From Bacillota bacterium (GTDB lineage Bacteria > Bacillota > Sulfobacillia > JAJZYS01 > JAJYTV01): DNA of 64,000 nt. A program made the translations under genes and the position numbers. Below, piece by piece: positions 4,346 through 47,000 of the stretch. Each line of letters opens with the position of its first letter. The first letter of the stretch is position 1. The stretch spans positions 46,923-110,922 of the forward strand of contig JAJYTE010000004.1 of assembly GCA_021793215.1 (NCBI GenBank), in the 5' to 3' direction. Under the pieces are notes generated by a model that saw only the letters and a program-made list of their open reading frames with translations, was not told where the DNA came from and did no database searches.

Positions 4346-4470
4346 GCCGATGCTCCCTTCACATACAACAACGCGTCGCGCGCGAGTCGACTGGAGTTCC
4401 GACATCGCCACAGGGGCGTTCGCCGGACGCGTTCTCTCCACCTGTCGCGAACGGCAGCGGGGCCACCCGA

Positions 4471-8451: not shown

Positions 8452-8466
8452 GGCAAGCCCTCCGCT

Positions 8467-9132: not shown

Positions 9133-9143
9133 CCGCCCCGGGA

Positions 9144-11676: not shown

Positions 11677-11724
11677 TGCACCCGCCCATGGGCAGCGGGG
11701 GCTCGGCCCCCCTTCTCCGGCACC

Positions 11725-14842: not shown

Positions 14843-14863
14843 TCCCAGCCCCCCGCTTCCGAG

Positions 14864-28600: not shown

Positions 28601-29351
28601 CGGGGGGCCACTCCAGTTGCGCGGGCCGCAGTCGACCCGCGCGCAGATCCTGCAGTACGGTGCGGGCTGCGCGGACGAAGTCGAGTTCCCCGCCGCGCAC
28701 GAGCAGGTGCTGGCGCCTGGCGACCGCCTCCAAGGGGTCCTCCCCACCGACGGTCACGCCGTAGCGCGCCGCGGCCGGTCCCGGCACGGCAGCGAGCACG
28801 GCGCGCGCCGTCTCGTCCTCGTCGTAGTCCGCGTCGGGCACCAGCCCGATCGCGGCGGCGAACAGTGACGGACGGCGTGGCAGAATGCCAGGCAAGTCCA
28901 GCAGCGCCAGATCCCCCCGGCGGATCCACTGCTCCGCGCGCGTGACGCCAGGCTTCGCGCCGACGGCGGCGGAGCGGGTGCCCACCAGCCGGTTGACCAG
29001 CGTCGACTTGCCGACGTTCGGCATGCCGGCGATGAACAGGCGCAGGGGCGGCCGGCCCGTCTGACCCTCCAGCCATCGCAGGAGCGCCGCGGGCGGCGCC
29101 GTGAGCGCGTTCGTCACGAAGCACGGCTGCTCCAGCGCGCGGCTCCACGCGGCGGCGGCGGACCGGTCGGCGAGGTCCGCGTGGGTCAGGACGAGCGCCG
29201 CGGGTACGCTCTGCAGGAGATGTCTCAGGCGCGGCAAGCGCGACGAGGCCGGCGCACGGGCGTCCGCCACCTCGATCCACGCGTCGAGGTGGTGGCGCGC
29301 CTCCCGCAGCACGCTCTCCGCGCGCTGCATGTGCACCGGCATGCCGGTCAT
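28590..29351 (-). CDS. rbgA: Ribosome biogenesis GTPase RbgA/YlqF (divergent)
   Basis: EVADARAP, GMPNVGKSTL, PGVTRAEQW, DLPG; position between lepB and rnhB. Confidence 0.85.
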   Translation of the reverse strand: MTGMPVHMQRAESVLREARHHLDAWIEVADARAPASSRLPRLRHLLQSVPAALVLTHADLADRSAAAAWSRALEQPCFVTNALTAPPAALLRWLEGQTGRPPLRLFIAGMPNVGKSTLVNRLVGTRSAAVGAKPGVTRAEQWIRRGDLALLDLPGILPRRPSLFAAAIGLVPDADYDEDETARAVLAAVPGPAAARYGVTVGGEDPLEAVARRQHLLVRGGELDFVRAARTVLQDLRAGRLRPAQLEWPPDAP

Positions 29352-29887
29352 CGTGGGATGGAACCGAACCGGTTCAGCGGCCAGATCACCCAGAAGGCGA
29401 CGCCCTGCACGGCCTTTATGCTCACGGGCCCGAAGTAGCGGCTGTCCTCGCTCGCGGCGCGATGGTCGCCGAGCACGAAGATGTCGCCCTTCGGTATCTT
29501 GAGCGGCGGCATGTTCCAGTGATCCTCCGTGCTGACGCCGCCATCCGTGAGGTAGGGTTGGGCCATCTTCTTCCCGTTGACGTACACCTGCCCGTTGACC
29601 ATCGAGACGGTCTGTCCACCGGTCGCGATCACGCGCTTGACGTAGGGCGGCTGGCCGGGGATGGGTGGCTGGAAGACGATGATCTCACCGTAGCGCAGGG
29701 GGCTCAGGCGGTACCACAACTTGTTGACGAGCAGGCGCTCGCCGTTCTGCAGCGTGTTCTGCATGGAGAAGCCGTCGACGATGTAGGGCTCGACGACGAA
29801 CGACCGGATCACAAGGGCTAGCACGACGGCCACGATGACCGTCTCGAGCGTATCGCGCAGCGCCTTGCGGGGCTCACGTCCGAACAA
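29348..29887 (-). CDS. lepB: Signal peptidase I (copy 2)
   Basis: GFSMQNTL (catalytic Ser), YVKRVI (Lys), GDHR...DSRYFG. Confidence 0.94.
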   Translation of the reverse strand: MFGREPRKALRDTLETVIVAVVLALVIRSFVVEPYIVDGFSMQNTLQNGERLLVNKLWYRLSPLRYGEIIVFQPPIPGQPPYVKRVIATGGQTVSMVNGQVYVNGKKMAQPYLTDGGVSTEDHWNMPPLKIPKGDIFVLGDHRAASEDSRYFGPVSIKAVQGVAFWVIWPLNRFGSIPR

Positions 29888-29914: not shown

Positions 29915-30481
29915 TCAGTTCGTGGGGAGCGGCCCGAACTGACTGAGCGGCCAGATCACCCAGAAGGCGACGCCCTTGACGGCACTCGTCTTGACTGGGC
30001 CGAAGTAGCGGCTGTCGCGGCTCACGGCCCGGTGGTCTCCCAGCACGTAGATGTCGCCCTTCGGCACCTTCGTCGGTGGCATGTTCCATTGGTCCTCGGT
30101 GCTGACGCCATGGCGCAGTAGGTACGGCTGCGGCATCTTCTTCCCGTCGACGAACACCTGTCCGTCCACCATCGAGATCGTCTGCCCGCCCGTCGCGATC
30201 ACGCGCTTCACGTAGAGCGGCTGCCCGGGGATCGGCGGCTGGAAGATGACGATCTCGCCGTAGTGCAGCGGCCCGAACGGCAAGCCGAGCTTGTCGACGA
30301 GCAGCCGCTCGTGGTTCTGCAGGGTGTTCTGCATCGAGATGCCCTCGACCAGGAAGGGCTCGATCAGCCACGTCCGGATCACGAGAGCCAGAACGACCGC
30401 GACGACCAGTGTCTGCACGGTATCCCACAGCGCGCTGCGGGGCTGTCGCCGGAACAAACCGCCACCTCGCCTTCGCCGCAC
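29915..30481 (-). CDS. lepB: Signal peptidase I (copy 1)
   Basis: GISMQNTL, YVKRVI, GDHR...DSRYFG. Confidence 0.94.
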   Translation of the reverse strand: MRRRRGGGLFRRQPRSALWDTVQTLVVAVVLALVIRTWLIEPFLVEGISMQNTLQNHERLLVDKLGLPFGPLHYGEIVIFQPPIPGQPLYVKRVIATGGQTISMVDGQVFVDGKKMPQPYLLRHGVSTEDQWNMPPTKVPKGDIYVLGDHRAVSRDSRYFGPVKTSAVKGVAFWVIWPLSQFGPLPTN

Positions 30482-32283: not shown

Positions 32284-32555
32284 TTGGCTCCATCCTCTTT
32301 GCCCGGGGACACTCCTGCCTTGCGGAGGATGTCACGGACAGTCTGCGATGGCTGCGCTCCGCAGCTCAGCCAGTAGCTGGCGCGCTCGGCCTTCACCTGC
32401 ACGACGGCGGGCTGCTTCTTCGGGTCGTAGTAACCGATCTCCTCGATGAATGCCCCGTCGCGCGGGGAACGGCTCTCGGCCACGACGATGCGGTAGAAGG
32501 GGTTCTTCTTCGCACCCATGCGGCGCAGGCGGATCTTGACGGCCAGTTCGCTCAC
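32280..32555 (-). CDS. rpsP: 30S ribosomal protein S16
   Basis: [29 protein letters not shown]. Confidence 0.98.
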
Positions 32556-33877
32556 CTCCTCTCAAGTGGCGGCATCTGCGGCATCTTGCCGCGCATGCCC
32601 TTCATCGCTTTCGCCATCCGACGCATCTCCTCGAACTGACGCAGCATCCGGTTGACATCTGCGACGCTCGTACCCGAGCCCTTCGCGATGCGTCGCCGGC
32701 GGCTGGCGTCCAGGAGGCGCGGGTCTCGGCGCTCTTGGCGCGTCATCGACTGGAGGACGGCGAGGTTCCTGCCGATCTGCTTCTCGTCGACGTTCTGCTC
32801 CTTGACCTTGCGCCCTACCCCCGGGATCATGCCGAGGATCTCGCGCACGCTGCCCATCTTGCGCACCGTCTGCAGCTGCGCCATCAGGTCGTCGAGCGTG
32901 ACCTGACCCTTGAACAGGCGCTGCTCCATCTCGCGGGCGTCGACGCCCTCGGTGTGCGCCTGGGCGCGCTCGATCAAGCCCATCACGTCACCCATGCCGA
33001 GGATCCGCTGCGCCATGCGGTCCGGGCTGAAGGGTTCGAGTTGCTCGGGCCGCTCGCCCGTCGATGCGAAGAGGATCGGCTTGCCGGTCGCGGCGCGCAC
33101 CGAAAGCGCCGCCCCACCTCGCGCGTCGCCGTCCACCTTCGAGAGCACCACGCCGTCGACACCCACGTCGCGGGCGAACGCCTCGGCTGTTCCGAGCGCG
33201 GCCTGGCCGGTCATCGCGTCCAGCACGAGGATCGTCGCTGCGGGGTCGATGGCGCGATGGATCGCCTGCAGCTCGGCCATGAGCTCCTGATCGACTTCCT
33301 GGCGGCCCGCGGTGTCGATGAGCACGATGTCCTGCCCGTCCCGGCGCGCGCGGTCCATACCGGCGCGCGCCGCCCGCACTGGGTCCGACGTCTCCGGGCG
33401 CTGCACCGGCACGCCGATGCGCTCCCCGAGGACGGCGAGCTGCTCGATCGCGGCCGGTCGCTTGAGGTCGCAGGCGACGAGCAGCGGCCAATGCTGCTCT
33501 TGCTTCATGCGCAGCGCGAGCTTCGCCGCGAACGTCGTCTTGCCGGCACCTTGCAGGCCCAGGAGCAGCACGGCGTGCGGCGCCTTGCCGCGCAGCCTGA
33601 GCGGCTGAACGTCCCCGCCCAAGAGTGCGCGCAGGGCGTCGTGGACGTGCTTCACGACGGTCTGACCCGGGGTGAGGCTCGACATGACGTCCTCGCCGAG
33701 GAGCTTCGGTTCGAGCTGCGCGACGAAGTCGCGGGCGACGGCGAAGTGGACGTCCGCGTCGAGGAGCGCGATGCGCACCTCGCGAAGCGCCTTCTTGATG
33801 TCGTCCGGCGTCAGCTTGCCGCGTCCGCGCAGTCTATCGAAGGTCTGCCGCAGTCGCTCCTGCAGCTGCTCAAACAT
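32552..33877 (-). CDS. ffh: Signal recognition particle protein Ffh
   Basis: [31 protein letters not shown] domain [10 protein letters not shown]. Confidence 0.97.
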
Positions 33878-34205
33878 CTGCTTCCAGCTCCCTCAGTCTT
33901 GCGTCGGCCGCCGACACGGCGGCCTCGGGATCGCCCTGCCGAAGCGCTTCGCGGACCGCGTGCAGGACCGAAACCTCCGCTTCATGCTGCGCGATCGCGC
34001 CGATCGCCCGATCCATCTCCTCCATCGCGCGCTCCGCGCGTCGCACGAGGAGAAGCGCCGCTGGGCGGCTGCAAGAGAGTTCCTCAGCGCACTCGGCGAG
34101 CGACAGATCCTCGAGGTGGTGCAGTTCGAACGCCCTGCGCTGCCGTTCGCGCAGCGCGGCGCCGTAGAAGTCGTAGAGCAGCGCGCGCCGCGCCAGTGGA
34201 TCCAA
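33870..34205 (-). CDS. ylxM: YlxM family putative DNA-binding protein
   Basis: LLYDFYGAAL...QR...DLSLAECAEEL; immediately upstream of ffh; TTG 34205 after a GAGGTG SD. Confidence 0.9.
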   Translation of the reverse strand: MDPLARRALLYDFYGAALRERQRRAFELHHLEDLSLAECAEELSCSRPAALLLVRRAERAMEEMDRAIGAIAQHEAEVSVLHAVREALRQGDPEAAVSAADARLRELEADV

Positions 34206-34219
34206 CGGCAGCACCTCGG

Positions 34220-34270
34220 TGTTAAGACTCAACGTTAACAGAGATTACAGGTGGTGGGGCGGAACGTCAA
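34220..34270 (-). promoter_or_regulatory. ylxM-ffh promoter and downstream inverted repeat
   Basis: TTGACG-N17-TAATCT (34270-34242); TGTTAA-N9-TTAACA palindrome at 34220-34240. Confidence 0.65.
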
Positions 34271-34469
34271 GCGCGCGGTTTCGGCCGCCCTAGGTTCGGT
34301 CGTCGCGCCGGTAAAACCGTGGACAGTTGCGGCCCGCGCTCGCCCGCTGCGCGCGTCGAGTGTCATGACACCGAGGCGATCGCCGTTGCAGCTTCGCGAA
34401 CTGTTGAGACTCCTTGTGGTCCGTCTGCTCAGCCCCGTGGAACAGCCCGAGATCGTCACCCAGGCCGAA

Positions 34470-34500
34470 TCGGCGACCCCCTTCCGACAGGGATCGCCGA
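34470..34500 (-). terminator. Hairpin downstream of the surface-protein gene
   Basis: TCGGCGACCCC...GGGATCGCCGA, an 11-bp stem with one G-U pair on the minus-strand RNA. Confidence 0.5.
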
Positions 34501-34549
34501 CCGTTTGATCCGGGTCACTCCGCGGAGCTAGCCGGCGCCCACCGGCGCG

Positions 34550-37500
34550 TCAGTGCGAAGGAGCGTCGAGCACCTTCGCAAGGACTGCAGCCGCCTCGGC
34601 CCTGGTCACGGCCGAAAGTGGCCGGAACGTGCCGTCCGCGTAGCCCTTCATGTAGCCCCCAGCCACGACCTGCGCCACGTAGATCCGCACCCAAGCGGCG
34701 ATCCGTCCCGCATCCGTGAAGGTAAGGGATGTCGTCTTGGTCAGCTTGAGCGCCCTCGCAAGGATCGCGGCCATCGCCTCCCGTGTGATCGTAGCGTTGG
34801 GTGCGAACGAGCTGCTGGTGACGCCTTCGACGATGCCCAGCGACGCCGCCCGCGCGACGAAGGGAGCGTACCAGTCGTCGGTCGGTACGTCCGCGAACGC
34901 CGTTTGCCCACTCGCAGCCGGCTTTTGACCCAGGGCAAGGACCAGCATCTTGACGAACTGCGCGCGAGTGACCGGGGCGCCGGGTCGGAAGGTGCCGTCC
35001 GGGAAGCCGACCGTCACCCCTGCGGTGACGAGCTGCTGGATCGCCCCGTAGGCCCACTCGTTCGCCGCGACATCGGAGAACGTGGTCGCCGCAGGCGGGG
35101 TGTAGCTGAAGCGATCCGCCGTGGCTACATGGCTCGTTCCTGCTGGACCTGTCACGCTGACGTCGACGGTCCCCTGACCTGCGGGCGAGACGGCGGTGAT
35201 CTCGCTCTCCGAATCCACCGTGAAGCTCGTCGCCGGCGTGCTGCCGAACTCCACCCCCGTCGCGCCGCTGAACCCGGAACCGGTGATGCGTACGGTCGTA
35301 CCTCCCGCGGCGGGTCCAGCGGCCGGACTGACGTCCTGGACGGACGGGCCTGTGGTCGCGTCGCCACCGCCCCCGCCACCACCCGAGACGCTCACAGGCG
35401 GCGCGGCCGCGACGGCGAACGGGGTTCCGGTGAGCGCCGCGAGGCTCGGGCTCGTCGCAGACGTGAGCGCCACGGAAAGGCAGCCCGTCCCGGGGTCGTA
35501 GGTCGGCGCCGGGGAGACTTGCGACCAAACCGAACCGCTCCACCAGTAGAGTGTCTGCGATGAACTGGCTCCGCTGCACTGTGCGATCGTGAGCGATGCT
35601 CCGCTCGTCAGCGTGGCGTCAGCGAGCTGCACGTCAACGTAGCCGGTCGCGGACGCGAAGGCGCCTGCCACGGGATCTGGGGCCGACCCGTACTGTGCCG
35701 CGGTGAGCGCACCCGTAATGCCCGTCACGGTGACCTTGGTCAGCGTCACTCCGTTCGACGCGAGATCCAGCGTCTGCGTGCCACTGGTCACTTCGAGACC
35801 CGCGGCATGCGTCACGTCGCTGCCGGCGGGTGGTACGAACAGGACGTAGCTGCCCGTGACGGCGGGCGACGCCGTCGTCGCCACCACCAGCACTGAGGTC
35901 GTCGTGGCAGGCACCTGGAACGAAGCGCTGTAGGTCCCGCCGCTACCGGTCTGTACACTGCTCTGCTGGATCGTCGATCCATCCGCGGCGACGTAGCTCA
36001 AGTCGAACGGCAGGTTGGGAATCGGGTTCGAGAAGGCGTCCAGGGTCCTCACGGTCAGCGTGACGCTTTGGGCGGACTCCGCCCAGGGGGACGGCGCGGT
36101 CACGGCTAGGCTGGCCAGTTGGGCCGGGGACACGACCAGTGCCGCCGTCTGCGTCAGCACGACGCCGTCCACCTGCAGCGTGAGCGTCTGGGTCGCGCCG
36201 GCGTCGGCGCCCTCGTCTGTGACCACGACCGCATAGGTGCCGGGCGACGTCTCCGTCACGCTCACGGGCGTCAGTGTGCCGACGCTTGGGTCGCTGGAGG
36301 TCACGACGAAGTCGTTCTCCTGCAGTCCCGTGTAGGTGTTCCCATGCTGGTCGACGACTCCGACCTGCAGGGTCACGTCTCCCGATCCCGCCGTCACACT
36401 GGAGGGGCCGGCGACAGTGCTTGCCGAAGGACTGGCGGCATCCGCCTTGACGGAGAGCGACGCGTGGCCCTCGATCAGCGACGTCGTCGTGGCGGTGAGG
36501 TTGACGGTTCCCGTGGAAGATGGGGCAGTGTAGCTCGTGGAAAACGAACCGTCGGCCAACGTCGCCAGGTTCGTAGAGCCGAAGCTCCCACCCGAAGCGC
36601 CATCGGAGAGGGTTACGCCAACTCCCGTCACCGGGTTGCCAAAGGCGTCGAGCACCGTTCCCTTCAGCGTCACGGAAGCGCCGGTCGCCGCAACGCTGGG
36701 CAGGGCGGCCAGGGTCACCTGGTCTGGCGCGGCCGGTGCTACCGTCGCGCCCGTCGGGTTGAGCGCCACCCCTTCGACGACGACGGTGATGTTCTGCGCG
36801 TTACCGCCGTCCGCATCGGTGTCGCTGACGACGATGCTGTACGTGCCGGGCGTCGTCTCCGCGACGCCCAGCGGCGTCAGCGTCCCGACCTTCGGGTCGC
36901 TGGAGACGACGGAGAAGTCACTCGCGACGAGCCCCGTCACCGCGTTTTGGTGGGAGTCCTCCACCGAGGTGGTCAGCGTCAGGTTCGCATTCCCCGCCGT
37001 CACCGGATGGGACGGCCCGGAGATGGCGCTGTAGCCGGGGTCTGGCGGCCCTGCCGTCACCGTGAGGGGGGAACTCTGGTGCGGGGACGAGGTCGCCAAC
37101 TGGGCGGTAATGCTGACCGTGCCTCGAAGCGTCGGCGCAGTGTAGGTCGTGGCGTATGATCCGTCAGGGCCGGTCTGGACGTAGCCCGACGCCGCGAAGG
37201 TGCCTCCCGCGCCGTTGTCCGACAGATCGACCCCTACGCCCGGTACGCCCTGACCGCTTGCGTCCGTGACTTCCCCTGTGACCGAGATCTGCCCGCCGGC
37301 CGTGACCGACGCGGCGCCGAAGGAGACGCTGACTGCGGAGGGAGCCTCGGCCACGTTGAAGGGGTCGGAGGTGGCGGCCAGGCCGTTGTCCGTTGCCGTA
37401 AGCGTGTACCCCATGCCCGCGGTGTCGATCGCAAGGCTGGTGAAGACGACCTCGCCCGGGTAGAAGGGGTTGAGGTTTTCGTTGAAGTCGCCGCCGAGCG

Positions 37501-39196
37501 CAGCTGCTTTTGCACCGGTCCCGGGCGTGATGGCCATCGTGATGGCTCTATACGGGCTGAGGGCCGACGTGGATGTGATGATGTTGCCGAACGCGTCCTC
37601 CACCGCCAACCAGGGCTGGACACCGAACGCGTTCGTCGCCACGGCGGCGCCTGGCTCCTGGACGAATCCCAGCTTCCCCGGCGGGCCAGGCTGCGTGGTG
37701 ACGGAAAGGGTCGCCGCGGCGAGACCGGTCGCGCGCGCAACGACGGTCCAACTTCCGGCTGTGGTGTCGCCGTAGTAGAACGGCGCGGAGCTCTGGCCGG
37801 CCGGGATCGTGAGGGACGTCGTCTCACCCCCTCCTGCCGTGGCGGAGAACTCCCCGGTCGTCGAGTCGCTGGAGAGGTTCACCGTGATGTTGCCCGCCTG
37901 CGCAACGAGGTTGCCGTACGCGTCCTCTACCGTTGCCACGATTGGCCCGAGGTTTGCGGTGGAGCCTACGGGGCCGGTGACGGCCGTTCCCAGCGCGAGG
38001 GTGGACGCCGGCCCCGACGTGAAGGTGAGACCAGCGGAAGGTGACGTAGGAACGACGTCCGACGACGTCGCCACGGAGACACGGGAGGCTGCGTACGTCC
38101 CGATCCCCGGGTTGGTGACGCCGCTCACGACGACGCTCACCTGGGTCCCTCCATACACGGACTGGGGAACCGTGATGGTGGCATCTGCGCCGCTTGCGGA
38201 CACCTGGCTGGCCACAACGCCATCCACCTGGTAGGCGGTGGCCGCAGACGGGAACGTCGTCCCCGAGGGCGCCGCGATGCTGATCGTGCCAGCGTTCTGT
38301 GCAAGGGCGCTTGTGGTGGTGAACTGGGCCGTCCATTGGGCGTTCGTGTCGTTCCCAAAGAGCGGGCTGACGCTGATGCCGACGCCCGAGACCATCGTCA
38401 GTACCGTGAGCGTCTTGGCGGCGCTAGACGGGCTCGCGGCCGCCGCTGTTGCAGTCAGCGCGGCGGCTCCACCCTGCGGACCTGCGGTGTACACGGTTGC
38501 GAACCCGCCACCGGAGTCGGTCGTCGTCGATGCGGGGGCGAAGCTTCCTCCGGCACCGCCGTCGGAGAAGGTTACCGTCGTGCCGGCTAGGGCTCCGCTC
38601 GTCCCGTAGACCGCACCCGTGACAGAGACCTGATCGCCCGCGTGGGCCTCAGACGCCCCGAGCGACAGTTCGACACCGCTGAGAATGACGTTCCCGCTGA
38701 GGCAGCCACTGGACCCGTCGTCGACGCAGAAGGCGGACCCTGGGTAGGACCCAGCCGGCGGATTGGTGACCCCGGTGATGTACACCCGGTAGTCGTCCGA
38801 GGTGGAGTTCGGTTGCCCAGGCGCGTCGATCGTGACCGTGTTTCCGTTGGGGCCCACCTGGAGTCCGGAGCAGGTGCCGTTGCAATCGCTGGCGGTGGAA
38901 GCGTCCTCCACGTTGTAGGCTCCCACGGCGCTGGGGAACACGGTTCCCGTCGGCGCCGTGATGGTGATCGGGTGTCCGCTGGGCCAGGTGCTCCCGGGGT
39001 TGAAGTTGATCTCCCAGTTCGAGGTCTGCCCTCCCCCCTGCGGGGTCATGCCCCACTCTGGAGCCCCTCCTCCGACGTTCGTCAGGGTGGCCGCCCGGAC
39101 GAGGGGCGCTGGAGAAACCACCGCCGTTCCGAGCGTACCGACGCAGAAGAGAAGCAGGATTCCGAGAACGTACCCATGCCGCACATGCAGCCGCAA
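34550..39196 (-). CDS. Large secreted Ig-like/invasin-repeat surface protein with IPT/TIG and three C-terminal SLH domains (~1548 aa)
   Basis: TTG after a GGAGGG SD; signal peptide (LGILLLFCVGTLG...VRA); repeated Big_1-like units; IPT (VSPAAGPAAGGTTVRITGSGF); SLH repeats (FSDV..W...GFPDGTFRPGAPVTRAQF, FAPNATITREAMA, GYADGTFRPLSAVTRAEA). Confidence 0.9.
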   Translation of the reverse strand: MRLHVRHGYVLGILLLFCVGTLGTAVVSPAPLVRAATLTNVGGGAPEWGMTPQGGGQTSNWEINFNPGSTWPSGHPITITAPTGTVFPSAVGAYNVEDASTASDCNGTCSGLQVGPNGNTVTIDAPGQPNSTSDDYRVYITGVTNPPAGSYPGSAFCVDDGSSGCLSGNVILSGVELSLGASEAHAGDQVSVTGAVYGTSGALAGTTVTFSDGGAGGSFAPASTTTDSGGGFATVYTAGPQGGAAALTATAAAASPSSAAKTLTVLTMVSGVGISVSPLFGNDTNAQWTAQFTTTSALAQNAGTISIAAPSGTTFPSAATAYQVDGVVASQVSASGADATITVPQSVYGGTQVSVVVSGVTNPGIGTYAASRVSVATSSDVVPTSPSAGLTFTSGPASTLALGTAVTGPVGSTANLGPIVATVEDAYGNLVAQAGNITVNLSSDSTTGEFSATAGGGETTSLTIPAGQSSAPFYYGDTTAGSWTVVARATGLAAATLSVTTQPGPPGKLGFVQEPGAAVATNAFGVQPWLAVEDAFGNIITSTSALSPYRAITMAITPGTGAKAAALGGDFNENLNPFYPGEVVFTSLAIDTAGMGYTLTATDNGLAATSDPFNVAEAPSAVSVSFGAASVTAGGQISVTGEVTDASGQGVPGVGVDLSDNGAGGTFAASGYVQTGPDGSYATTYTAPTLRGTVSITAQLATSSPHQSSPLTVTAGPPDPGYSAISGPSHPVTAGNANLTLTTSVEDSHQNAVTGLVASDFSVVSSDPKVGTLTPLGVAETTPGTYSIVVSDTDADGGNAQNITVVVEGVALNPTGATVAPAAPDQVTLAALPSVAATGASVTLKGTVLDAFGNPVTGVGVTLSDGASGGSFGSTNLATLADGSFSTSYTAPSSTGTVNLTATTTSLIEGHASLSVKADAASPSASTVAGPSSVTAGSGDVTLQVGVVDQHGNTYTGLQENDFVVTSSDPSVGTLTPVSVTETSPGTYAVVVTDEGADAGATQTLTLQVDGVVLTQTAALVVSPAQLASLAVTAPSPWAESAQSVTLTVRTLDAFSNPIPNLPFDLSYVAADGSTIQQSSVQTGSGGTYSASFQVPATTTSVLVVATTASPAVTGSYVLFVPPAGSDVTHAAGLEVTSGTQTLDLASNGVTLTKVTVTGITGALTAAQYGSAPDPVAGAFASATGYVDVQLADATLTSGASLTIAQCSGASSSQTLYWWSGSVWSQVSPAPTYDPGTGCLSVALTSATSPSLAALTGTPFAVAAAPPVSVSGGGGGGGDATTGPSVQDVSPAAGPAAGGTTVRITGSGFSGATGVEFGSTPATSFTVDSESEITAVSPAGQGTVDVSVTGPAGTSHVATADRFSYTPPAATTFSDVAANEWAYGAIQQLVTAGVTVGFPDGTFRPGAPVTRAQFVKMLVLALGQKPAASGQTAFADVPTDDWYAPFVARAASLGIVEGVTSSSFAPNATITREAMAAILARALKLTKTTSLTFTDAGRIAAWVRIYVAQVVAGGYMKGYADGTFRPLSAVTRAEAAAVLAKVLDAPSH

Positions 39197-39304
39197 TCGC
39201 TTTCCCTCCACACGCCAAAGCTGGCGCCGGCTCCCGGCTCTCCCCTGCCAGGCGAGAGCGCACGTATCGGCGTCACTCCCACCTTCGGGCATGGCGGCGC
39301 GGGT

Positions 39305-39327
39305 GACATCCGTGCGTCTCACGGATC
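39305..39327. promoter_or_regulatory. Palindromic operator, copy 1 (putative LuxR-STAND binding site)
   Basis: GAC-ATCCGTG-cgtct-CACGGAT-C; arms and flanks identical to the copy at 42478-42500. Confidence 0.75.
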
Positions 39328-39405
39328 TATGGGTGGCGCGGGAGGAGGACACCGCCTTCGCCTGGGCGAAGTCGGGGCCCCAGCAATGCAGCAGGGGGAC
39401 GCTCG

Positions 39406-42351
39406 ATGGATCTGGAGAAGAGCAGCCGCACGTCCCGCGCAGCGAAGTCCGCGGGACACCTTGGCGCGCCAAGCGGCCCGTCCGCGGACGGGCCGGCCGC
39501 CGTCCCCATCCTGGGCCGAACCGCAGAACTGGCGAGGATCAAGGACTGCCTGGAAGGTGTCGGGCTCCACGGTGCCCAGATCCTCCTCCTCGAGGGCGAA
39601 CCCGGCATCGGCAAGAGTACGCTTGCCGCAGAGACCAAGCGCTTGGCCGACTCCATGGCGTTTCGAACGCTCGCCGCGCGGACGGACGAGCTGGCGGAGC
39701 ACCGACCCCTTGGACTGGTTGCCGACCTGTTGCAGGCGGCAGGCACCAACCTAGCGAAGGGCACACGCTCCCTCCTGGGGGTGGGCGAGGCACGCCGCGG
39801 CGCCGACATGACATTTCGGGCCAGCGAGGTGCTCATCGAGACGTGCGATCGCCTGTGCGCCGAAGCGCCGCTCGCCTTGGTCTTGGAAGACCTGCACTGG
39901 TCCGATGCGGCGTCCGTGTTCGCGCTGCGCCGCATCATCCGGCACGGCGCCTCACTGCCGCTGGCGGTGGTGGCCACCCTTCGCCCGCTTCCGCGGCCAT
40001 CCGAGCTCTCATCGCTCATCGCGGACCTCGATCCGGGGAGCCATCAGATGCTCGGTCCGATGGAGGAAGCCGCGATCGATCGGCTGGCCGCCCGCTTCCT
40101 CGGTGCAGCCCCGGGTCCGGAGTTGCGCGTCCAAATCGCGATGGCGGGCGGCAACCCGCTCTTCGTGCTCGAGCTTCTGGACGAGCTGCAGGCAGAGGGC
40201 GCGCTGTCGCGACGGCCCACGGCGAGTTCGGATGCTCCCGCAGTCGACGTCGCACGCACCGTCCAGTTGCCTTCTCTCGGGCTGACCGTGCTTCGCCGCC
40301 TCAGCTTCCTCTCTCCCGACACGCTCCGTTGCCTCGGGCTGGCCGCCGTACTCGGCGTACGCTTTCGGGCGAGCGCGCTTGCGGCGCTCTCTGGACGGAT
40401 CTCGGCAGATCTCGTGGGTCCGATCAGGGAGGCGCTCGCGGCGGGCCTGCTCGTAGAGGACGACGAGCAGCTCCGCTTCCGACACGAGCTCGTGCGCGAA
40501 GCGCTCTACAGCGACCTCCCCGCTGCGCTGCGACGTGGCCTGCACAGAGATGCGGCCCGCATCCTCCGCGAGGCGGGAGAGGAGGCGGGAGTATGGGTAG
40601 AGCACCTCCTGCGCGGACCACAGGCCCTCTCCCGAGAGGTCGCCTCGCAGCTGCGCGAAGCGGCAAGCGACCTTGTGGTCACCTTGCCGTCTGAGGCGGT
40701 ACGGTTGCTGGAGCAAGCGATCCTTGCAGCCGGATCGGACCAGGTCCTTCGAGCGAACCTGATGGCTGAGCGCAGCATGGGTCTGCTGCTGGCCGGACGG
40801 CTCCCGGAGGGCGAAGCCGCCTGCCGCGAGGCGCTCACCGTCTTGAAGGACCCCTCCCTTCGGCTCTTGCTGCGCGACGCGCTGGCGCAATCGCTGCTCG
40901 ACCGCGGCGATCCCCTGGCTGCACTGCGAGAGGCCGAAGACGGGCTGCGCGATCCGGCGCTCGACGGGATGTCGCGCGCTTGGCTGCACAGTCGCTCCGC
41001 CATGGCACGGCTCTTCATCGGGGACTTCAGAGGTTCGCACCACGCGATTCGGCAGGCCGAGGAGGGCGTAGGAGACAGCGGGAACGCCCTTCGGGTCTGT
41101 CTGCTCGGAGTGAGGACGCTCTTGGCGGCGCAAGAGGGGCAGATCGCAGAGGCCGCGCGCATCGGGGGCGAGGCCGTGGCGCTCGCGGAGGCGGAACCCT
41201 CGCGTGCCATCTACGACTCTGTCCCGCACATCACCTGGGCGACCAGTCTCATCGACACCGACCGCTTCGACGACGCCGCGGCAGTGCTTGCGCGCGGCTG
41301 CGAAGCCCAAGAGTTCTTCGGGGCGCGCCGCAAACTGCCCGTCCACCATGTCGGACTCGGCTTCACCTACTTCTGGACAGGCAAGTGGGACGAGGCCGTG
41401 GCCGAGATCGAGACGGGGATCAACCTCGCGGAGGAGACCGGGGCCGGTTGGCGCGCCGCCGCTCGCGGCCTCAGGGCCGTGGTGGCCGCCTGCCGTGGTG
41501 ACGGCGCGACGGCCGCCAGGTGGCTTAGGGCCGGTGAGGAGGGTCTGGCCGCCGGCGAGGCAGGCTACCGCACGGAGTGGCTCGCGTGGGCCCGTGTCCT
41601 GTGTCTTGAACTGGCCGAGCCCTCGACCCCTCCTGGAAATCTTCTTGACGCCATCACGCAGCAGGGGTCGGCGTCCTGGATGCCTGGCTTCTCGTTCGCG
41701 ACCGTCGGCCCTACCGTCGCGCGGCTCGCCCTGGCTTCAGGCAGAGAGCGGCTGGTGGAAGAGGTACAGGAGCGGCTCGACACCCTGGCGGCGGAGAACC
41801 CGGGCGTGCTGGGCGTCACCGCCGCCCGTGACATGGTGCGGGCGCTGCGCGCGGGGGATCCTGCGCGACTCCGGCTGGCGACCGACACCTATCGGCAGGC
41901 AGAAAGACCCCTCGAGGCTGGAGGCGCGGCCGAGGAAGCGGCCGTGCTCGCCGCACGCGCAGGAGACCGCGAGGCGGCGGCAAAACTCTTCGCGGCGGCT
42001 CGCCAGCTCTACGGCGGACTCGGTGCGACAGCGCTCGCCGGGCGGATGGCCCGACGCCTTCGGGCGGCGGGGGTCGGGCCTGACCGCGCTCCGATCGCAC
42101 GTGCCCGACCCGGCCACGGATGGGATTCCCTGACCGCGATGGAGCGGCAGATCCTACGGCTGATCGTCGAACGGCGGTCCAACCCCGAGATCGCGGGTGT
42201 CTTCGTCATCTCCCGACGGACGGTCGAGACCCATGTCTCCCACATCCTGACCAAGGTCGGTCTTCGCTCGCGGGTTGAGCTCGCCCGGGCCGCAGCCGAG
42301 CATTTCGGCTGGCGACTTCGGCTCGAGGAGTTCTCCCAGTCGAGCGAGTAG
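39406..42351 (+). CDS. Large ATP-binding LuxR-family regulator (STAND AAA_16 ATPase + TPR-like + LuxR HTH)
   Basis: Walker A GEPGIGKS, Walker B LVLEDLHWSD, GGNPLF, FRHELVREALY, helical repeats, C-terminal LTAMERQIL...SNPEIA...ISRRTVETHVSHIL. Confidence 0.95.
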   Translation: MDLEKSSRTSRAAKSAGHLGAPSGPSADGPAAVPILGRTAELARIKDCLEGVGLHGAQILLLEGEPGIGKSTLAAETKRLADSMAFRTLAARTDELAEHRPLGLVADLLQAAGTNLAKGTRSLLGVGEARRGADMTFRASEVLIETCDRLCAEAPLALVLEDLHWSDAASVFALRRIIRHGASLPLAVVATLRPLPRPSELSSLIADLDPGSHQMLGPMEEAAIDRLAARFLGAAPGPELRVQIAMAGGNPLFVLELLDELQAEGALSRRPTASSDAPAVDVARTVQLPSLGLTVLRRLSFLSPDTLRCLGLAAVLGVRFRASALAALSGRISADLVGPIREALAAGLLVEDDEQLRFRHELVREALYSDLPAALRRGLHRDAARILREAGEEAGVWVEHLLRGPQALSREVASQLREAASDLVVTLPSEAVRLLEQAILAAGSDQVLRANLMAERSMGLLLAGRLPEGEAACREALTVLKDPSLRLLLRDALAQSLLDRGDPLAALREAEDGLRDPALDGMSRAWLHSRSAMARLFIGDFRGSHHAIRQAEEGVGDSGNALRVCLLGVRTLLAAQEGQIAEAARIGGEAVALAEAEPSRAIYDSVPHITWATSLIDTDRFDDAAAVLARGCEAQEFFGARRKLPVHHVGLGFTYFWTGKWDEAVAEIETGINLAEETGAGWRAAARGLRAVVAACRGDGATAARWLRAGEEGLAAGEAGYRTEWLAWARVLCLELAEPSTPPGNLLDAITQQGSASWMPGFSFATVGPTVARLALASGRERLVEEVQERLDTLAAENPGVLGVTAARDMVRALRAGDPARLRLATDTYRQAERPLEAGGAAEEAAVLAARAGDREAAAKLFAAARQLYGGLGATALAGRMARRLRAAGVGPDRAPIARARPGHGWDSLTAMERQILRLIVERRSNPEIAGVFVISRRTVETHVSHILTKVGLRSRVELARAAAEHFGWRLRLEEFSQSSE

Positions 42352-42447
42352 GCCCAGCCAGCCCGAGAAGGGCAACACCTCACCAGCATGTTCCCAGAGT
42401 TCGCCTGTCAGAGGCGTCAGGCCCTTGACCTCGATGGTGATGCGCAT
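42154..42447 (-). CDS. Small hypothetical protein (97 aa), probably leaderless, antisense-overlapping the LuxR 3' end
   Basis: ATG 6 nt after a TATGCT -10; N-terminal ~45 aa (MRITIEV...PLTGEL...PFSGWLGLLARLGELL) looks like beta strands plus an amphipathic helix; the tail is the antisense of the LuxR HTH. Confidence 0.6.
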   Translation of the reverse strand: MRITIEVKGLTPLTGELWEHAGEVLPFSGWLGLLARLGELLEPKSPAEMLGCGPGELNPRAKTDLGQDVGDMGLDRPSGDDEDTRDLGVGPPFDDQP

Positions 42448-42453
42448 GCAGCG

Positions 42454-42500
42454 AGCATAGTCGTCACAGGCGCGCACGACATCCGTGGGCTGCACGGATC
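42454..42500 (-). promoter_or_regulatory. Palindromic operator, copy 2, plus -10 element
   Basis: GAC-ATCCGTG-ggctg-CACGGAT-C (42478-42500) centred 43 nt upstream of ATG 42447; TATGCT at 42459-42454. Confidence 0.75.
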
Positions 42501-42505
42501 CGACA

Positions 42506-42551
42506 CGTGAGTCCACGCCACGTTGGCGGAGCCCCGTGGCGCGGACTCACG
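42506..42551 (-). terminator. 17-bp hairpin downstream of the YggT gene
   Basis: CGTGAGTCCACGCCACG-N12-CGTGGCGCGGACTCACG; the single mismatch is a G-U pair on the minus-strand RNA; no U-tract. Confidence 0.6.
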
Positions 42552-42617
42552 CCTGGGACGGCTTGGCTTCGTACACCTGCCGTGTCTAGCGATCGACCGC
42601 CGGATGCTCGCCTGCGT

Positions 42618-42941
42618 CTACCTGTGCTCGGGCCGGGTGATCATCACGAGGCGCACGAGCCCGACGCCGATCAGCCAGTACACGGCCATCGCAACGAGCG
42701 TGCCGAGTTCGAGCCGCGAGATGCCGTAGGCGACTTGGTACCCGAAGAGAGAGAAGAAGGGTTCCACGAACGGAACCGACAGCGAGTAGACGAAGTTCGC
42801 GAACGCGTTCGCCGGATTCGCCCCCAGAAGAGCGAGTACGAAACGAAACGCGAGCAGGACGAGAAGTACCCTGTCCACGTAGGAGATCACCCGGGCGGCC
42901 AGTTTCTGACCGCTGGGCTGCTGCGTCTGAGACAACCCCAT
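42618..42941 (-). CDS. YggT family membrane protein
   Basis: LLAFRFVLALLGANPANAFANFVYSLSVPFVEPFFSLF pattern; start trimmed to ATG 42941. Confidence 0.8.
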   Translation of the reverse strand: MGLSQTQQPSGQKLAARVISYVDRVLLVLLAFRFVLALLGANPANAFANFVYSLSVPFVEPFFSLFGYQVAYGISRLELGTLVAMAVYWLIGVGLVRLVMITRPEHR

Positions 42942-43098
42942 CACCCTTCCCAGGCGTGGGCAGGTAACTTCGGATGCCTTCGCCCGACCGCCTACGCTAT
43001 AAGGATTCGCATTTCGGGCCTGAGTTCTGCCAGGGACTGTCGGTAGAACAAGCAAGGCGCCTTCTGCCGCAGGCGCCGGAGGTTTCGCTGATGGTCTT

Positions 43099-44001
43099 CT
43101 ACCTGCCGCCGATCTCCGCCCAGTTCGGCGCCATCGCCTGAACGTACTCCTCGGGAGAGAAGACCACGAGGTCCTCGATGCCCTCCCCAAGGCCCACGAG
43201 CTTCACGGGCAGGGAGAGCGCCTCGCGTACCGCGAGCAGGGAGCCTCCCTTCGCCGCCCCATCGAGCTTCGTTACGCAGATGCCCGTCAGAGGCGCCGCG
43301 CCCATGAAGCCCTGCGCCTGCGCGACGGCGTTCTGGCCCGTCGCGCCGTCAACGACGAGCAGCACCTCGTGCGGCGCGCCGGGGAGGGCGCGCGCCGTCG
43401 CGCGCGCGATCTTGCCGAGTTCGTCCAAAAGCCCCTGGCGGTTATGCAGGCGTCCGGCGGTGTCGACGAGCACCAGGCCCGCCCCCTTCGCCTTCCCCCG
43501 TTCGATCGCTTGGTACGCGACGCTCGCGGGGTCCTGACGCTCCGCACCGCGCACGATCTCCGCGCCGGCGCGTTCCGCCCATACGGCGATCTGGGCCGTC
43601 GCGGCCGCACGGTAGGTGTCCGCCGCTGCGATCACGACGCTTTTCCCCATCGCCTTGGCCATCATCGCGAGCTTGCCGGCGGTCGTCGTCTTGCCGGCGC
43701 CGTTCACCCCGACGAGCAGCCAGACCGTCAGGCCGTCCTCCGCCCACCGCAGCGGCTCTTGAGGACCGGCGATCCGCATCATCGCCTCCGCGAACGCCTG
43801 CGGCATATCCTCCGGTGCTCGCCGTTCCAGTGCCCGGCGGACGTCTGCCGCCACCTTGAGCCCGCAGTCCGCGAGAAGGAGCGCCTCCTCGACGGCGTCG
43901 AGCACCTCCTCGCGCTCCGCTCCGCGTCCGAGCCCGCGCAGGCGCGAGCCCAGCGCATTGCGCGTGCGCTCAAGACCCTTGCGCCACCTGTCCCAGATCA
44001 T
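43099..44001 (-). CDS. ftsY: SRP receptor FtsY
   Basis: GVNGAGKTTT, AADTYRAAA, DTAGRL, TKLDGAAKGG. Confidence 0.96.
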   Translation of the reverse strand: MIWDRWRKGLERTRNALGSRLRGLGRGAEREEVLDAVEEALLLADCGLKVAADVRRALERRAPEDMPQAFAEAMMRIAGPQEPLRWAEDGLTVWLLVGVNGAGKTTTAGKLAMMAKAMGKSVVIAAADTYRAAATAQIAVWAERAGAEIVRGAERQDPASVAYQAIERGKAKGAGLVLVDTAGRLHNRQGLLDELGKIARATARALPGAPHEVLLVVDGATGQNAVAQAQGFMGAAPLTGICVTKLDGAAKGGSLLAVREALSLPVKLVGLGEGIEDLVVFSPEEYVQAMAPNWAEIGGR

Positions 44002-47000
44002 CGCTCGGCTCCCCTTCCAGTCGGACGGCCGCCAGCAGCGTGATGCCCCTCTCCTGCATCGTCGTCCCGATCAGCTGGTCCGCCGCCTCCATCGTCGGCC
44101 GCTGGTGCGTCACGACGATCAGCTGGCGTCCGGCCTGTCGCCGAAGGAACTGCGCGAAGCGCTCGACGTTGCGCTCGTCGAGGCTGGCCTCGATCTCGTC
44201 CAGTAGGTAGAAGGGCGGCGGCCGCAGTGCGGAGAGGGCGAAGAGGAAGGCGATCGCCGTGAGCGCCCGTTCCCCGCCCGAAAGCCAGTTGAGGCGCACG
44301 GCCTCCTTGCCAGGCAGCTCGACCTCGATGTCGATCCCCTGTGCGACCGCGACGAGGCGCGCCTTCGCGCCCTCGCCGAACAGCGCGGCCGCCATCGCGG
44401 TAAAGCGTTCCCCCACGACCCGCATCCCGTGCTGCAGCCGGTCGGCGACAGCGCGGTCAGCCTGGGCCAGCACCTCCACGAGGGTCGCCTTGGCTGCCGA
44501 GAGGTCGGCAAGGCGCTCCTGCAGCTGCGAGAAGCGGTCCTCCGCCTCGCGCAGCCGCTCGGGCGCATCCGGCGGCGCCCCGCCCATCTCCTGTAGGTCC
44601 CGGCGCGCCTTGGCGAGCGCCTCCTCCGCCTGCGAGGGCATGGGTGCGACGGCGCGCGTGAGCGCGTCGGCCCCGTGCCCCTCGCGCAGCGCGCGCTCCG
44701 CTTCCCGGATCTCCTCCGCGACGCGCACGGCCTCCTCGCGCAGCCGCACAGCCTGCTCCTCTGCGCCCGCCGAGGCGGCGGCGACCTGACGCATAGCCCG
44801 CTCGACCAGCCGCTCGAGGGTCCGCAGCGTGACGTCGAGGCGCTGGCCCCTGCGCCGCTGCGCCGTGATCACATCGCGCCAAGCAGCTGCGGACTCCCGC
44901 AGTCCGCGAGCGCTCTCGGCCTCGCGCCGTGCGGTCTCAAGGCTGCCTTCCGCCGTTTCCGCCGATGCCCGCAACTCAGCGAGCACCTCGGAGCCCTGCG
45001 AGAGCTCCGCCGCGAGGCGGCGCGTCTCCTCCTGGGCCACGGCCTGCACAAGGCTCGCCTGTTGGGCGGCCTGGGCGTGCTGTCCCGGCGCGAGCGCCTT
45101 CGCCTGCGCAAACTCCTCAAGGAGTCGCTCCCGCTCCGCGCGCGCGGACTCCACGCGCGCGAGCACCTGCTCGTGGTCCCTGCGGGCCGCCTGCGCGGCG
45201 CCGGCCGCCCGCTCCAGGGCGCGAAGCGCCTCCTCCTGGGCTCCGGCCGCCTGCCGCTCGCGCGACAGCGCTTCCGTCAGCGCCGCTCCTGCAGCGCGCA
45301 GCGAGGCCTCGCGCTCCGCGAACTCCGCACGGGCGGCGCGAACCGCGTCGGGCGGCGGCGCCGCCGCCGCGACCTGTACCGCCTGCCCGCCCGTCAGGGC
45401 GCCGCCCACCTGCACGACCTGCCCGTCGAGCGTGACGACCCGAAGGCGCCGACCGGTGGCCTCCGCCGCGCGCTGCGCCGCGCCGAGATCCTCCGCCACG
45501 AGAGTGCGGCCCAGCCGCAGGCGAACGGCGTCCTCGATCGCCGCAGGGTAATCGCAGAGCGACGAGAGTACTCCCAGACAGCCTGTCACGCGGGGAGCCG
45601 CCGCGGTCTCCGCCGGGCTGAGGGCGCCGAGTGGCAGGAAGGTCGCCCGCCCCGCGGAGGCCCTGCGCAGCCACTCGATGCCCTGACGCGCCACGGCCTC
45701 CCCTTCGACGACGATATCTGACGCTGCACCGCCGAGGGCAGTCGCGAGCGCCAGCGCGAGCCTTGGCTCCTTCGGCTGCACGAGCCGCCCAAGCGTTCCA
45801 AGAACACCCTCGATCCGTCCAGCCTCCGACTCGCGCAGGAAGGCTCTCACGGCGGCAGGCGCATGTCGTTCCGCGGCCCGCACGGCGTCTTCGAACGCCG
45901 CCTCCCTGCGCTCCGCCGCTTCGTACGCCTGACGCGCCTCCTGCTCCGCCGCCCGTGCGGCCGAAGCCGAAGTGTGGCAGGAGAGTTCGGCCTCCCGCGC
46001 CGCCTGCAGGGCGTCGGCGGCGGCGCCCGCTTCCTGCTCACGCACCGCGCGCACCCCGGAGAGCTCCGCGGCACGCGGCTCGAGGTCGGCGGCGTCGCGC
46101 GAGGCCGCAGCGAGGGCCGCCTCGATCTGCGGCATGCGGGCGAGGGCGCGCATCGCCTCCGCACCGGCGGCGCCCGCCTCGCGCAGTTCCGATTCGGCCT
46201 GCGAGAGCTGAAGGCTCGCGGCCGCGTACGCGGACTGGTGGGCCTCGTGGGTCTCCTCGGCCCGGCGCAGGCGCTCCTGCGACTCGCCGTGGCGCGTGAG
46301 GGCGGACCTCTCACGCTCCGACGCCGCCGCAGCCTGGGCGGCCGCCGCGTGCAGGCGGTCCTCGACGGAAGCGGCAAGCGCCTCGCGTCGCGCCCCGCGT
46401 GCCGCCGTACCCTCGAGCGCAGTGGCGATGCGCGCGGAGAGGGCCTCGTAGCGGCCGATCGCCTGCGCCCCTGACCTGCTGCTCTCACCGGCCGCCGCCT
46501 CGCGCTCCGTCGCGCGCTGCAGCTGCGCGCGCAGCCGCTCGATCCTGCGGTGCCCAAGTCCGATCTCCAGCGTGGCGATGCGCGCGCGCAGTTCCGACGC
46601 CGCGCTCGCGAGGCGGGCATCGCGTCGAAGGTCCGGCATCTGGGCCTCGAGTTCCTCGAGGCGCGCGCGCTCGATCTCCGCCTCCTGGTCGCCGCGCGCC
46701 AGTTCGTGCACCGCCTCGCGACGGCGCTCGCGGTAGACGAAGGCGCCGGAGGCATCCTCGAGCAGGCGCCGCCGGCCGTTCGGGTCCTGGCTCACCACTT
46801 CCTCGACGCGCCCCTGGCCGATCCAGGCGTACCCCTCCGCCAGGCCAAGGTGCGCGATCAGCCGCTCGACGTCGCGGGCGCGGCAGGTGACGCCCTGCAG
46901 CCGGTACTCCGTGTCGCCTTGGCGGTAGAGTCGTCGGACGATCTCCACTTCCTCGGCCTCCAGCGGCAGCTGGCGGTCGTGGTTGTCGAACGTCAGGCGC

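Follow-up and report, generated by a model that had tools for sequence, protein, structure and literature searches.

A LAL/MalT-type STAND regulator, a palindromic box and an unannotated small gene, a probable partner, at a variable chromosomal site of a Bacillota bacterium

The DNA analyzed here (the window) is a stretch of 64,000 nucleotides (nt) from a Bacillota bacterium (assembly GCA_021793215.1, contig JAJYTE010000004.1, positions 46,923 to 110,922), and it contains an 8.4 kb insert with three genes and two copies of a palindromic element, here called the box. One gene encodes a STAND regulator of the large ATP-binding LuxR (LAL)/MalT type, the second a giant SLH-domain surface protein, and the third, a small open reading frame (ORF) overlapping the regulator gene on the opposite strand, is by its pattern of conservation a real gene of a widespread, undescribed family. 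We think it reasonably probable, from sequence comparisons, that the insert encodes a LAL/MalT-type STAND factor together with two local targets that would be activated through the box dyads. Its parts, in window positions, are as follows.

34252–42617 (8.4 kb), no strand: species-specific insert between the YggT-like gene/ftsY and ylxM-ffh, absent from the same-genus genome G003 (blastn)
34550–39196, minus strand: giant surface protein gene, 1548 amino acids (aa), with SLH, TIG and Big_1 Pfam matches
39281–39286, minus strand: putative −10 hexamer GAAGGT of the giant gene, 18 nt after GGATGTC, with the same spacing as at the small gene
39305–39327 (dyad core 39308–39326), plus strand: box 1, GACATCCGTGcgtctCACGGATC, between the divergently oriented giant and regulator genes
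39406–42351, plus strand: LAL/MalT-type STAND regulator gene, 981 aa, from AAA_16 and GerE Pfam matches, motifs and a tree
42154–42447, minus strand: small gene, 97 codons as an open frame, from phmmer, alignments, a profile and a fold model
42454–42459, minus strand: putative −10 hexamer TATGCT of the small gene, 6 nt before ATG 42447
42478–42500 (dyad core 42481–42499), plus strand: box 2, GACATCCGTGggctgCACGGATC, centered 43 nt upstream of ATG 42447

The original prediction, made from the sequence alone, placed a STAND regulator between a divergent SLH protein and a convergent small ORF, and Pfam matches and coordinates agree with it. The regulator has an AAA_16 domain (PF13191, 1.6e-17, 65 bits against a cut-off of 32.6, residues 35–189) with a Walker A motif GEPGIGKS at residue 64 and a Walker B-type stretch LVLEDLHW, and it ends in a GerE/LuxR helix-turn-helix (HTH) domain (PF00196, 1.4e-13, 50.7 bits against a cut-off of 23.5, residues 907–963). 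Its middle region is TPR-like, with TPR_12 the only match at 19 bits, under the cut-off of 30.1, and its homologs carry PF17874 (TPR_MalT) or PF13424. By the sequence features tested, an NTPase and a C-terminal GerE HTH, it is a member of the LAL/MalT family. PADLOC gave the regulator an HTH-level match only (7.1e-5, residues 908–951), and none of its defense models matched the small or the giant protein.

The same prediction held that one palindrome precedes both genes that flank the regulator, and this is what the genome shows. The element GACATCCGTG-N5-CACGGATC lies at 39305–39327 and at 42478–42500, on the plus strand in each case, with none expected from 100 shuffles; at both places it forms a perfect 7-5-7 dyad of about 20 bp. 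Its core, ATCCGTG-N5-CACGGAT, occurs exactly twice in the assembly and nowhere else at up to one mismatch (2,744,402 bases, 87 contigs, 97.66% complete), while the reversed control pattern has no match there. Scanning spacers of 2–9 nt genome-wide gave no further core matches at 0 or 1 mismatch, and at two mismatches the 5-nt spacer gives six matches and the other spacers similar numbers (2–9). The two exact copies, 3.17 kb apart, bracket the sole gene of this regulator subfamily in the genome. The two intergenic regions are alike over 32 bp only (GGCGCG-N3-GACATCCGTG-N5-CACGGATC), and the 5-nt spacers of the two boxes differ at four of five positions.

On the minus strand box 1 reads GATCCGTG-agacg-CACGGATGTC, with GAAGGT (39286–39281) 18 nt further on, and box 2 reads GATCCGTG-cagcc-CACGGATGTC, with TATGCT 18 nt further on. 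The two have in common their orientation, an asymmetric GTC and CGCGCC flank and the 18-nt spacing, and both point to minus-strand transcription. On the plus strand beside box 1 there is no nAnnnT hexamer at the corresponding distance, so direct control of the regulator’s own gene from box 1 is less clear.

Two copies in one orientation on either side of a gene could also be read as RNA hairpins, or as recombination or insertion scars, and not as protein sites, and it fits such a reading that the box arms change in a compensatory way between loci. We nevertheless regard this as most improbable. No U-run follows either hairpin, a terminator scan found nothing at either palindrome, and an Rfam E-value scan of 33800–43300 found nothing; other loci usually have one box copy, whose distance to a start codon is fixed and has a −10-like hexamer within it. 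The unlike spacers argue against a crossover core or target duplication, and on that ground target-site duplication and recombination-site readings of the boxes were rejected.

The small gene most likely starts at ATG 42447 and not at GTG 42516, the first codon of a longer minus-strand frame (42154–42516, 120 codons) that has no Pfam match; 6 of 16 aligned homologs begin at query residue 24 of that frame, which is ATG 42447. With this start, box 2 lies upstream of the small gene and not inside it. Its first 45 codons (42307–42447) encode a conserved beta-beta-beta-alpha domain, whereas its last 198 nt (42154–42351) overlap the 3′, HTH-coding end of the regulator gene on the opposite strand. 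This tail is probably dispensable: the homolog at locus L033 (L and G numbers are our handles for loci and genomes) ends after 46 codons, and we thus regard the window’s 50-codon tail as a mere consequence of the antisense frame being open.

A phmmer search with the 120-codon frame against 1.84 billion representatives returned 31 matches at E ≤ 1e-3, the best at 2.5e-15. The consensus of the N-terminal 45 residues is MxIxIxV..PPxGxV....G...PFxGWLxLLxxL, with G15, F27, G29, W30, L33 and L37 invariant in 17 sequences, and the domain is modeled as three strands and a helix (mean pLDDT 90.8, pTM 0.67). A profile of the domain collects 605 clusters at E ≤ 1e-3, of 23–83 aa, all of them unnamed or called “hypothetical protein.” Neither Pfam nor NCBIfam has a model for the family: precomputed Pfam for the 137 small-domain matches listed has no entry, 0 of 17 family members match Pfam-A at E ≤ 0.1, and NCBIfam gives the 17 only single chance-level rows at 0.05–0.07. 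In fold searches, Foldseek (E ≤ 0.001) returned no PDB chain and VIA reached a wide Z of 4.5 at best, so no fold is assigned; the ESM Atlas gives weak leads (0.81–0.83) to unnamed Actinomycetota clusters. No protein longer than 227 aa was found to carry the domain, a weak negative owing to the word index, and an apparent N-terminal fusion of the domain to the regulator at L156 was rejected as an artefact of ORF calling, as the two frames differ. The N-terminus, MRITIEVKG..., forms a beta-strand of the modeled fold and has no hydrophobic leader, and the small protein is probably intracellular. In its own phylum the profile finds the window’s genome (G000) only, 1 of 401 genomes, at 6.1e-20; two other rows, at 0.007–0.008, look like noise.

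An ORF placed in this way might not be translated at all: box 2 could drive an antisense RNA against the 3′ end of the regulator gene, the frame being a high-G+C shadow of the HTH strand. The last 198 nt are indeed antisense to the HTH, with codon-position G+C (0.82/0.45/0.68) that mirrors the sense gene, and the C-terminal halves of the homologs align because they are antisense to the conserved GerE helix. The window’s ORF is also absent from the protein collection at both tested starts. It was thus probably never called, and small genes of this type are missed by annotation pipelines because they overlap the regulator on the opposite strand. The first 45 codons, however, are conserved outside the regulator’s coding sequence, and a G+C-rich antisense reading would not keep their TGG and TTY codons for the invariant W and F, which argues for a real gene, as does the confident fold prediction. 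Moreover, the gene recurs in tandem, non-overlapping layouts; in four such contexts (L140, L143, L144 and L148), where the box is absent, a Shine-Dalgarno sequence precedes the same start position, which is independent support both for translation and for the chosen start. It is quite improbable that the ORF is untranslated, and antisense transcription can join the mechanism without excluding translation.

The check named beforehand was whether homologs of the small ORF are linked to STAND genes elsewhere, and they are. For an unbiased sample we ran the small-domain profile against 401 genomes of the phylum of an Amycolatopsis record at E ≤ 0.01, and 27 of them matched (3 of the 27 are flagged unpublished), compared with the single convincing match in the window’s own phylum. 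From the 23 best places we removed a partial match and two that come from unpublished genomes, which left 20 loci. At 16 of these 20 loci an AAA_16 or NB-ARC protein of 940–1140 aa is encoded within 3.5 kb, and 12 of the 16 carry GerE. The layouts are as follows.

Convergent, with the regulator stop 87–161 nt after the small-gene start: L141, L142, L145, L146, L147, L150 (6)
Small gene directly downstream of the STAND gene, same strand: L140, L143, L144, L154 (no GerE); L152, L157 (GerE) (6)
Small gene directly upstream of the regulator gene: L155, L156 (2)
STAND gene nearby: L149, L159 (2)
No STAND gene in the fetched stretch: L148, L151, L153, L158 (4)

Three further loci, L032, L033 and L038, were chosen through regulator homology and are thus a biased sample; here too the small gene is convergent to the regulator gene. 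With these three, the window and the six loci listed first, the convergent layout is seen at 10 loci, where the regulator stop falls 39–173 nt after the small-gene start. LAL/MalT-type STAND regulators are abundant in such genomes (19–36 AAA_16 matches per 2.6–5.6 Mb in five of the sampled Actinomycetota genomes), and by a rough estimate the chance of a small gene and an AAA_16 gene being adjacent is below 10%. As no genome has more than two small genes (one or two each), the partner must go with particular STAND genes. As a side observation, the convergent regulator at L141 (G471:C28, ~2570–5330) has its NTPase part (466 aa) and its TPR/HTH part (521 aa) in different frames, through either a frameshift or an assembly error.

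The other neighbors vary between loci (an FG-GAP protein, an acyl-CoA dehydrogenase, a DUF6351/lipase protein, a cyclase). The recurring unit is the regulator, the box and the small gene, and the arrangement with a giant protein is not conserved; in this respect the three-part unit that the original prediction proposed did not hold up, and L031, the closest relative with DNA, lacks the box, the small gene and a giant protein alike.

The palindrome upstream of the small-ORF homologs turned out to be a conserved box at a fixed position. Dyads upstream of the small gene are ATCCGCC-N5-GGCGGAT at L032, ATCGGTCA-N2-TGACCGAT (twice) at L033 and TCCGTGA-N2-TCACGGA at L038. When the upstream regions are aligned on the start codon, 13 of 24 loci have, by eye, an aACATCCG...CGGATGTt box starting at −52 ± 1. 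When a box is strictly defined (six or more of the seven pairs complementary, ends ATC/GAT, spacer of 4–5), one starts at −54 to −50 in 9 of 24 loci, against 0.023 expected from the box density in the same loci, and four more, L145, L151, L156 and L158, have degenerate boxes by eye at that position. At L155 and L156 the box precedes both the small gene and the regulator gene. Layouts with two sites are found again at L147, which has extra boxes ahead of its regulator’s operon.

The box is centered at −42 to −43 from the start codon and spans about −52 to −34; an nAnnnT hexamer follows at −12 to −7 (TATGCT, GACGAT, GATGAT, GAGAAT, etc.), with no Shine-Dalgarno sequence. This spacing suggests that the boxed small genes may be leaderless, with the start codon as the transcription start, and have a class-II-type promoter.

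A span of about −52 to −34 is also a classic position for occlusion, and the same box and regulator might work with the opposite sign, as a repressor or roadblock over the −35 region of both minus-strand promoters that at box 2 blocks smc-ftsY-yggT read-through antisense to the regulator’s own gene. According to the part of the source consulted, the LAL protein SCO6993 does repress through palindromes (PMC9628970), and box 2 lies 118 nt past the stop of the co-directional upstream gene. Yet no −35-like hexamer to hide is evident and a consensus scan finds no sigma-70 promoter, so that activator-dependent promoters fit better; L155 and L156 have their box ahead of an operon in which the small gene and the regulator gene are joined; and a roadblock leaves the fixed distance from box to start codon across orientations unexplained. 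We hold repression to be unlikely, and activation by the regulator remains the reading we prefer.

The identity of the box-binding protein is indicated by a comparison of GerE recognition helices with half-sites, which pair as follows.

Helix RRTVETH(V/L)S(H/N), half-site ATCCGTG: window, L141, L038, L142
Helix TVQTH, half-site ATCCGCC: L032, L156
Helix TVATHVEH, half-site ATCGGTC: L033
Helix YVSRRTVETHLTH, half-site ATCGTGG: L145, L150
Helix KHTVQTH, half-site ATCCCTC: L155
Helix KRTVETHIAH, half-site ATCCGTA: L147

Helices and half-sites thus change together, which points to the regulator’s HTH as the box binder. No box is found at the four loci whose STAND gene lacks GerE (L140, L143, L144 and L154). 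In three of these (L140, L143 and L144) the upstream 60 nt contain instead TGAACGC-type direct repeats about 21 nt apart and a Shine-Dalgarno sequence, with no palindrome, which suggests a second, different DNA-binding mode in the GerE-less branch. The same direct repeats and a Shine-Dalgarno sequence are seen at L148, where the fetched stretch has no STAND gene.

Small proteins of beta-plus-helix type can bind DNA as dimers, and the small protein, not the LAL regulator, might bind the box as an autoregulatory DNA-binding protein that has the regulator as a neighbor for other reasons. The box always travels with the small gene, and L151 and L158 have a box and a small gene with no STAND gene in the fetched stretch. 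Against this stand the half-site changes that track the GerE recognition helix, the direct GAAC repeats in place of boxes beside the GerE-less STAND genes, and box 1, which precedes a different gene altogether; we judge binding by the small protein improbable and return to the regulator’s HTH as the candidate binder.

The second candidate target, the giant protein, has a putative N-terminal hydrophobic leader, Ig-like repeats, a TIG domain and three C-terminal SLH domains (Pfam: SLH PF00395, 2.9e-38, in three stretches; TIG, 1.9e-10; Big_1, 1.2e-9). Its start was placed at TTG 39196, 6 nt behind GGAGGG, where the N-terminus, read by eye, is basic and then hydrophobic, and its transcription would begin near 39274, giving a 78-nt leader that includes the Shine-Dalgarno sequence. 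Over its C-terminal 470 aa it shares 47–56% identity with SLH proteins from its own family and order. The giant protein thus seems to be native to the lineage, in contrast to the regulator and the small gene, which seem to be imports. We also note that in the same bacterial family two other, unrelated LAL-type regulators of 28–29% identity, L168 (G001:C338) and L167 (G004:C37), lie beside large SLH proteins, one of 913 aa with Big_1/Invasin_D3 and one of 1109 aa with NHL/TIG. Members of this lineage may thus tend to place variable surface proteins under STAND-LuxR control, a lead only, as SLH proteins are numerous there.

The regulator’s own relationships are consistent with import. Against 40 relatives its best match has 29% identity, and 400 other genomes of its own phylum contain no match at E ≤ 1e-60, whereas homologs of 41–51% identity are present in a large protein collection; one homolog cluster holds a protein named from an Acidimicrobiales metagenome-assembled genome. 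A scan of genome contigs with the regulator found one Amycolatopsis locus at 30% identity, and a first scan of metagenomes found no loci. We built a maximum-likelihood tree from 32 chosen rows (the window, 5 LAL genes from its own genus up to its class, 13 fetched loci and 13 database proteins; other matches from the homolog search were left out, and the root is a midpoint root only). In it the window’s regulator belongs to a clade of 10 rows (100/100), itself part of a clade of 25 rows (100/99). The larger clade takes in the regulators linked to small genes, along with proteins named Thermoleophilaceae, Actinomycetia, Streptosporangiaceae and Actinomadura; the five LAL regulators from the window’s own lineage group separately (100/99).

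The genes that flank the insert, all on the minus strand, are ylxM and ffh on one side and the YggT-like gene, ftsY and smc on the other.

32552–33877, minus strand: ffh, after ylxM, from synteny
33870–34232, minus strand: ylxM (UPF0122), from Pfam PF04297 at 1.1e-11 and synteny
42618–~42941, minus strand: YggT-like membrane protein gene, Pfam YGGT at 1.3e-4 and 22.8 bits, below the cut-off of 27

In blastn against the same-genus genome G003 (L024), homology covers 42618–44092 and 33847–34251 and ends exactly at the insert edges, that is, at the YggT-like gene stop (42618) and 19 bp upstream of ylxM (34251). At the identical site G003 has 14.7 kb with a CRISPR-Cas locus (L024, G003:C2:60400-77000, ~6250–16060 therein) of Cas3 bearing an HD domain, GSU0053/GSU0054 family Cas proteins and a Cas4-Cas1 fusion. 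The distance from ftsY to ylxM is 8.9 kb here, 15.2 kb in G003, 11.4 kb in G004 (a fifth sister-genus genome) and 0.7–1.8 kb in four other sister-genus genomes, and this variability across the family makes the yggT-ylxM gap a variable hot spot. The original claim that the block interrupts the normally adjacent ftsY and ylxM-ffh is thus right about the insertion, by comparison with G003, but not about the normal adjacency, since the gap ranges from 0.7 to 15.2 kb in the family and the YggT-like gene, which adjoins ftsY, is kept in G003 and is conserved in the genus, lies between ftsY and the block. That the block was acquired, as also proposed, is supported both by its absence from the same-genus genome and by the branching of the regulator with Actinomycetota-type sequences, apart from the LAL genes of its own lineage. 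It is likely, on this comparative evidence, that the cassette was transferred across phyla into a variable chromosomal site, and it appears to have been coupled after transfer to a lineage-typical giant SLH protein through the second box copy.

In the model that we favor, the C-terminal GerE HTH of the regulator, as a dimer, would recognize the dyad ATCCGTG-N5-CACGGAT, and box 2 would occupy a class II activator position before a leaderless small gene. Once switched on by ATP and ligand, the STAND sensor would fire both minus-strand promoters, one before the small gene and one before the giant SLH gene. Given its genetic linkage to AAA_16/TPR STAND proteins, the small family most likely acts on or with the regulator and would be a partner dedicated to this STAND subfamily. 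Where the layout is convergent, transcription of the small gene would run antisense into the 3′ end of the regulator gene, a second possible feedback route. DNA binding, activation over repression, the leaderless starts and the role of the small protein are all deduced from sequence.

Several observations weigh against this model or parts of it. The consensus scan finds no sigma-70 promoter, and the transcription starts are placed only from spacing. The co-variation rests on few lineages, some of them close kin (L145 and L150 are sisters in the tree). L146 (convergent), L152, L157 and L159 have a GerE regulator and no box, whereas L151 and L158 have a box and no STAND gene in the 8–10 kb fetched. 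L031 is 48% identical to the window’s regulator and has a recognition helix, ISRRTVETHVSHIL, nearly that of the window, and yet there is no such palindrome at up to three mismatches and no small gene within 7 kb of it. A regulator bound at a site centered near −42 might, by lying over the −35 region, act as a repressor instead, and the link between box and giant gene is found in this genome only. As for acquisition, the edges have no flanking repeats of at least 11 nt, the G+C content of the insert (0.69) is like that of its flanks, with no composition shift, and no mobility genes were noticed in it.

A more far-reaching proposal, which we put forward tentatively and think somewhat doubtful, is that the ~45-residue protein is the cognate intracellular partner, a protein ligand or cofactor, of one AAA_16/TPR STAND subfamily, induced by the regulator from a leaderless promoter; the whole would be a self-contained auto-loop, a cassette moving between phyla, to which cargo is wired by one added box. 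If true, this would be a new class of protein-gated STAND transcription switch, a cytoplasmic analog of receptor-peptide pairs.

To our knowledge, neither the DNA site nor the signal is known for most LAL/MalT-type STAND regulators. One STAND subfamily here gains a predicted operator with a testable correspondence of helix to half-site, a predicted promoter architecture that is leaderless and class-II-like, and a conserved unannotated small partner of 605 clusters and no family model.

Other observations concern the insert’s occurrence and the remainder of the window. Sequencing runs that contain the stretch are labeled as mine tailings and aquifer metagenomes; two that are labeled RNA-Seq consist of contigs and are flagged as probably DNA. 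One run from another sample, X3, has a contig with the whole insert (window 34490–43015) at ~97% identity, with 239 differences in 7.9 kb; small indels in this copy fall at 39364 and at 39196/39198, where the TTG start of the giant gene is proposed. Downstream of rplS, two very similar tandem ORFs of 179 and 188 aa (29348–29887 and 29915–30481, minus strand) look, by eye, like duplicated signal peptidase I genes.

Among known systems the regulator resembles MalT of E. coli and the actinobacterial LALs (PikD, SCO6993) in its AAA_16 P-loop NTPase, its TPR-type middle (TPR_MalT in relatives), its C-terminal GerE HTH and its size of ~950–1000 aa. The MalT antagonists MalK, MalY and Aes are reportedly enzymes or transport proteins that are encoded elsewhere. 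LuxR-family and LAL proteins bind palindromes, SCO6993 also in its own promoter, according to the part of the source consulted (PMC9628970), which gives the MalT boxes, by contrast, as short asymmetric hexamers. The LAL/MalT literature searched (subscription journals lay outside its scope) yielded no conserved small partner gene, no position-fixed box before one and no such cassette.

LuxR of Vibrio fischeri binds through a GerE HTH dimer to a ~20-bp lux box that is centered near −42.5 and replaces the −35 element (class II). The likeness lies in the dyad center, which is at −42 to −43 from the start codon here, the apparent transcription start being placed from spacing; the differences are the half-site sequence and the sensor, which is an acyl-homoserine-lactone-binding domain there and a STAND ATPase here. 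A work of Hansmeier and colleagues from 2006, going by its title, is said to place an S-layer gene of Corynebacterium glutamicum on a small strain-specific island under a LuxR-type activator. That regulator is reportedly a small LuxR-type protein, not a STAND protein, encoded off the island, and the S-layer gene, cspB, is said to have no SLH domains.

For the putative small feedback component, TraM-type anti-activators are a model: in TraR-TraM the activator, of LuxR type, is under the control of a small protein that contacts it directly, as the part of the source consulted has it (PMC13043044). We found no likeness of the small domain here to TraM or TraM2, TraM not being among the fold-search rows (Foldseek at E ≤ 0.001; best Z 4.5). 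In PlcR/PapR a palindromic receptor box precedes the small gene and gives an auto-loop. RRNPP systems in general have adjacent genes for a repeat-containing HTH receptor and a small partner, according to the part of the source consulted (PMC10075063). The present pair differs from these in that its small protein is a predicted folded domain with no export signal and its receptor has an NTPase and a C-terminal GerE-type HTH.

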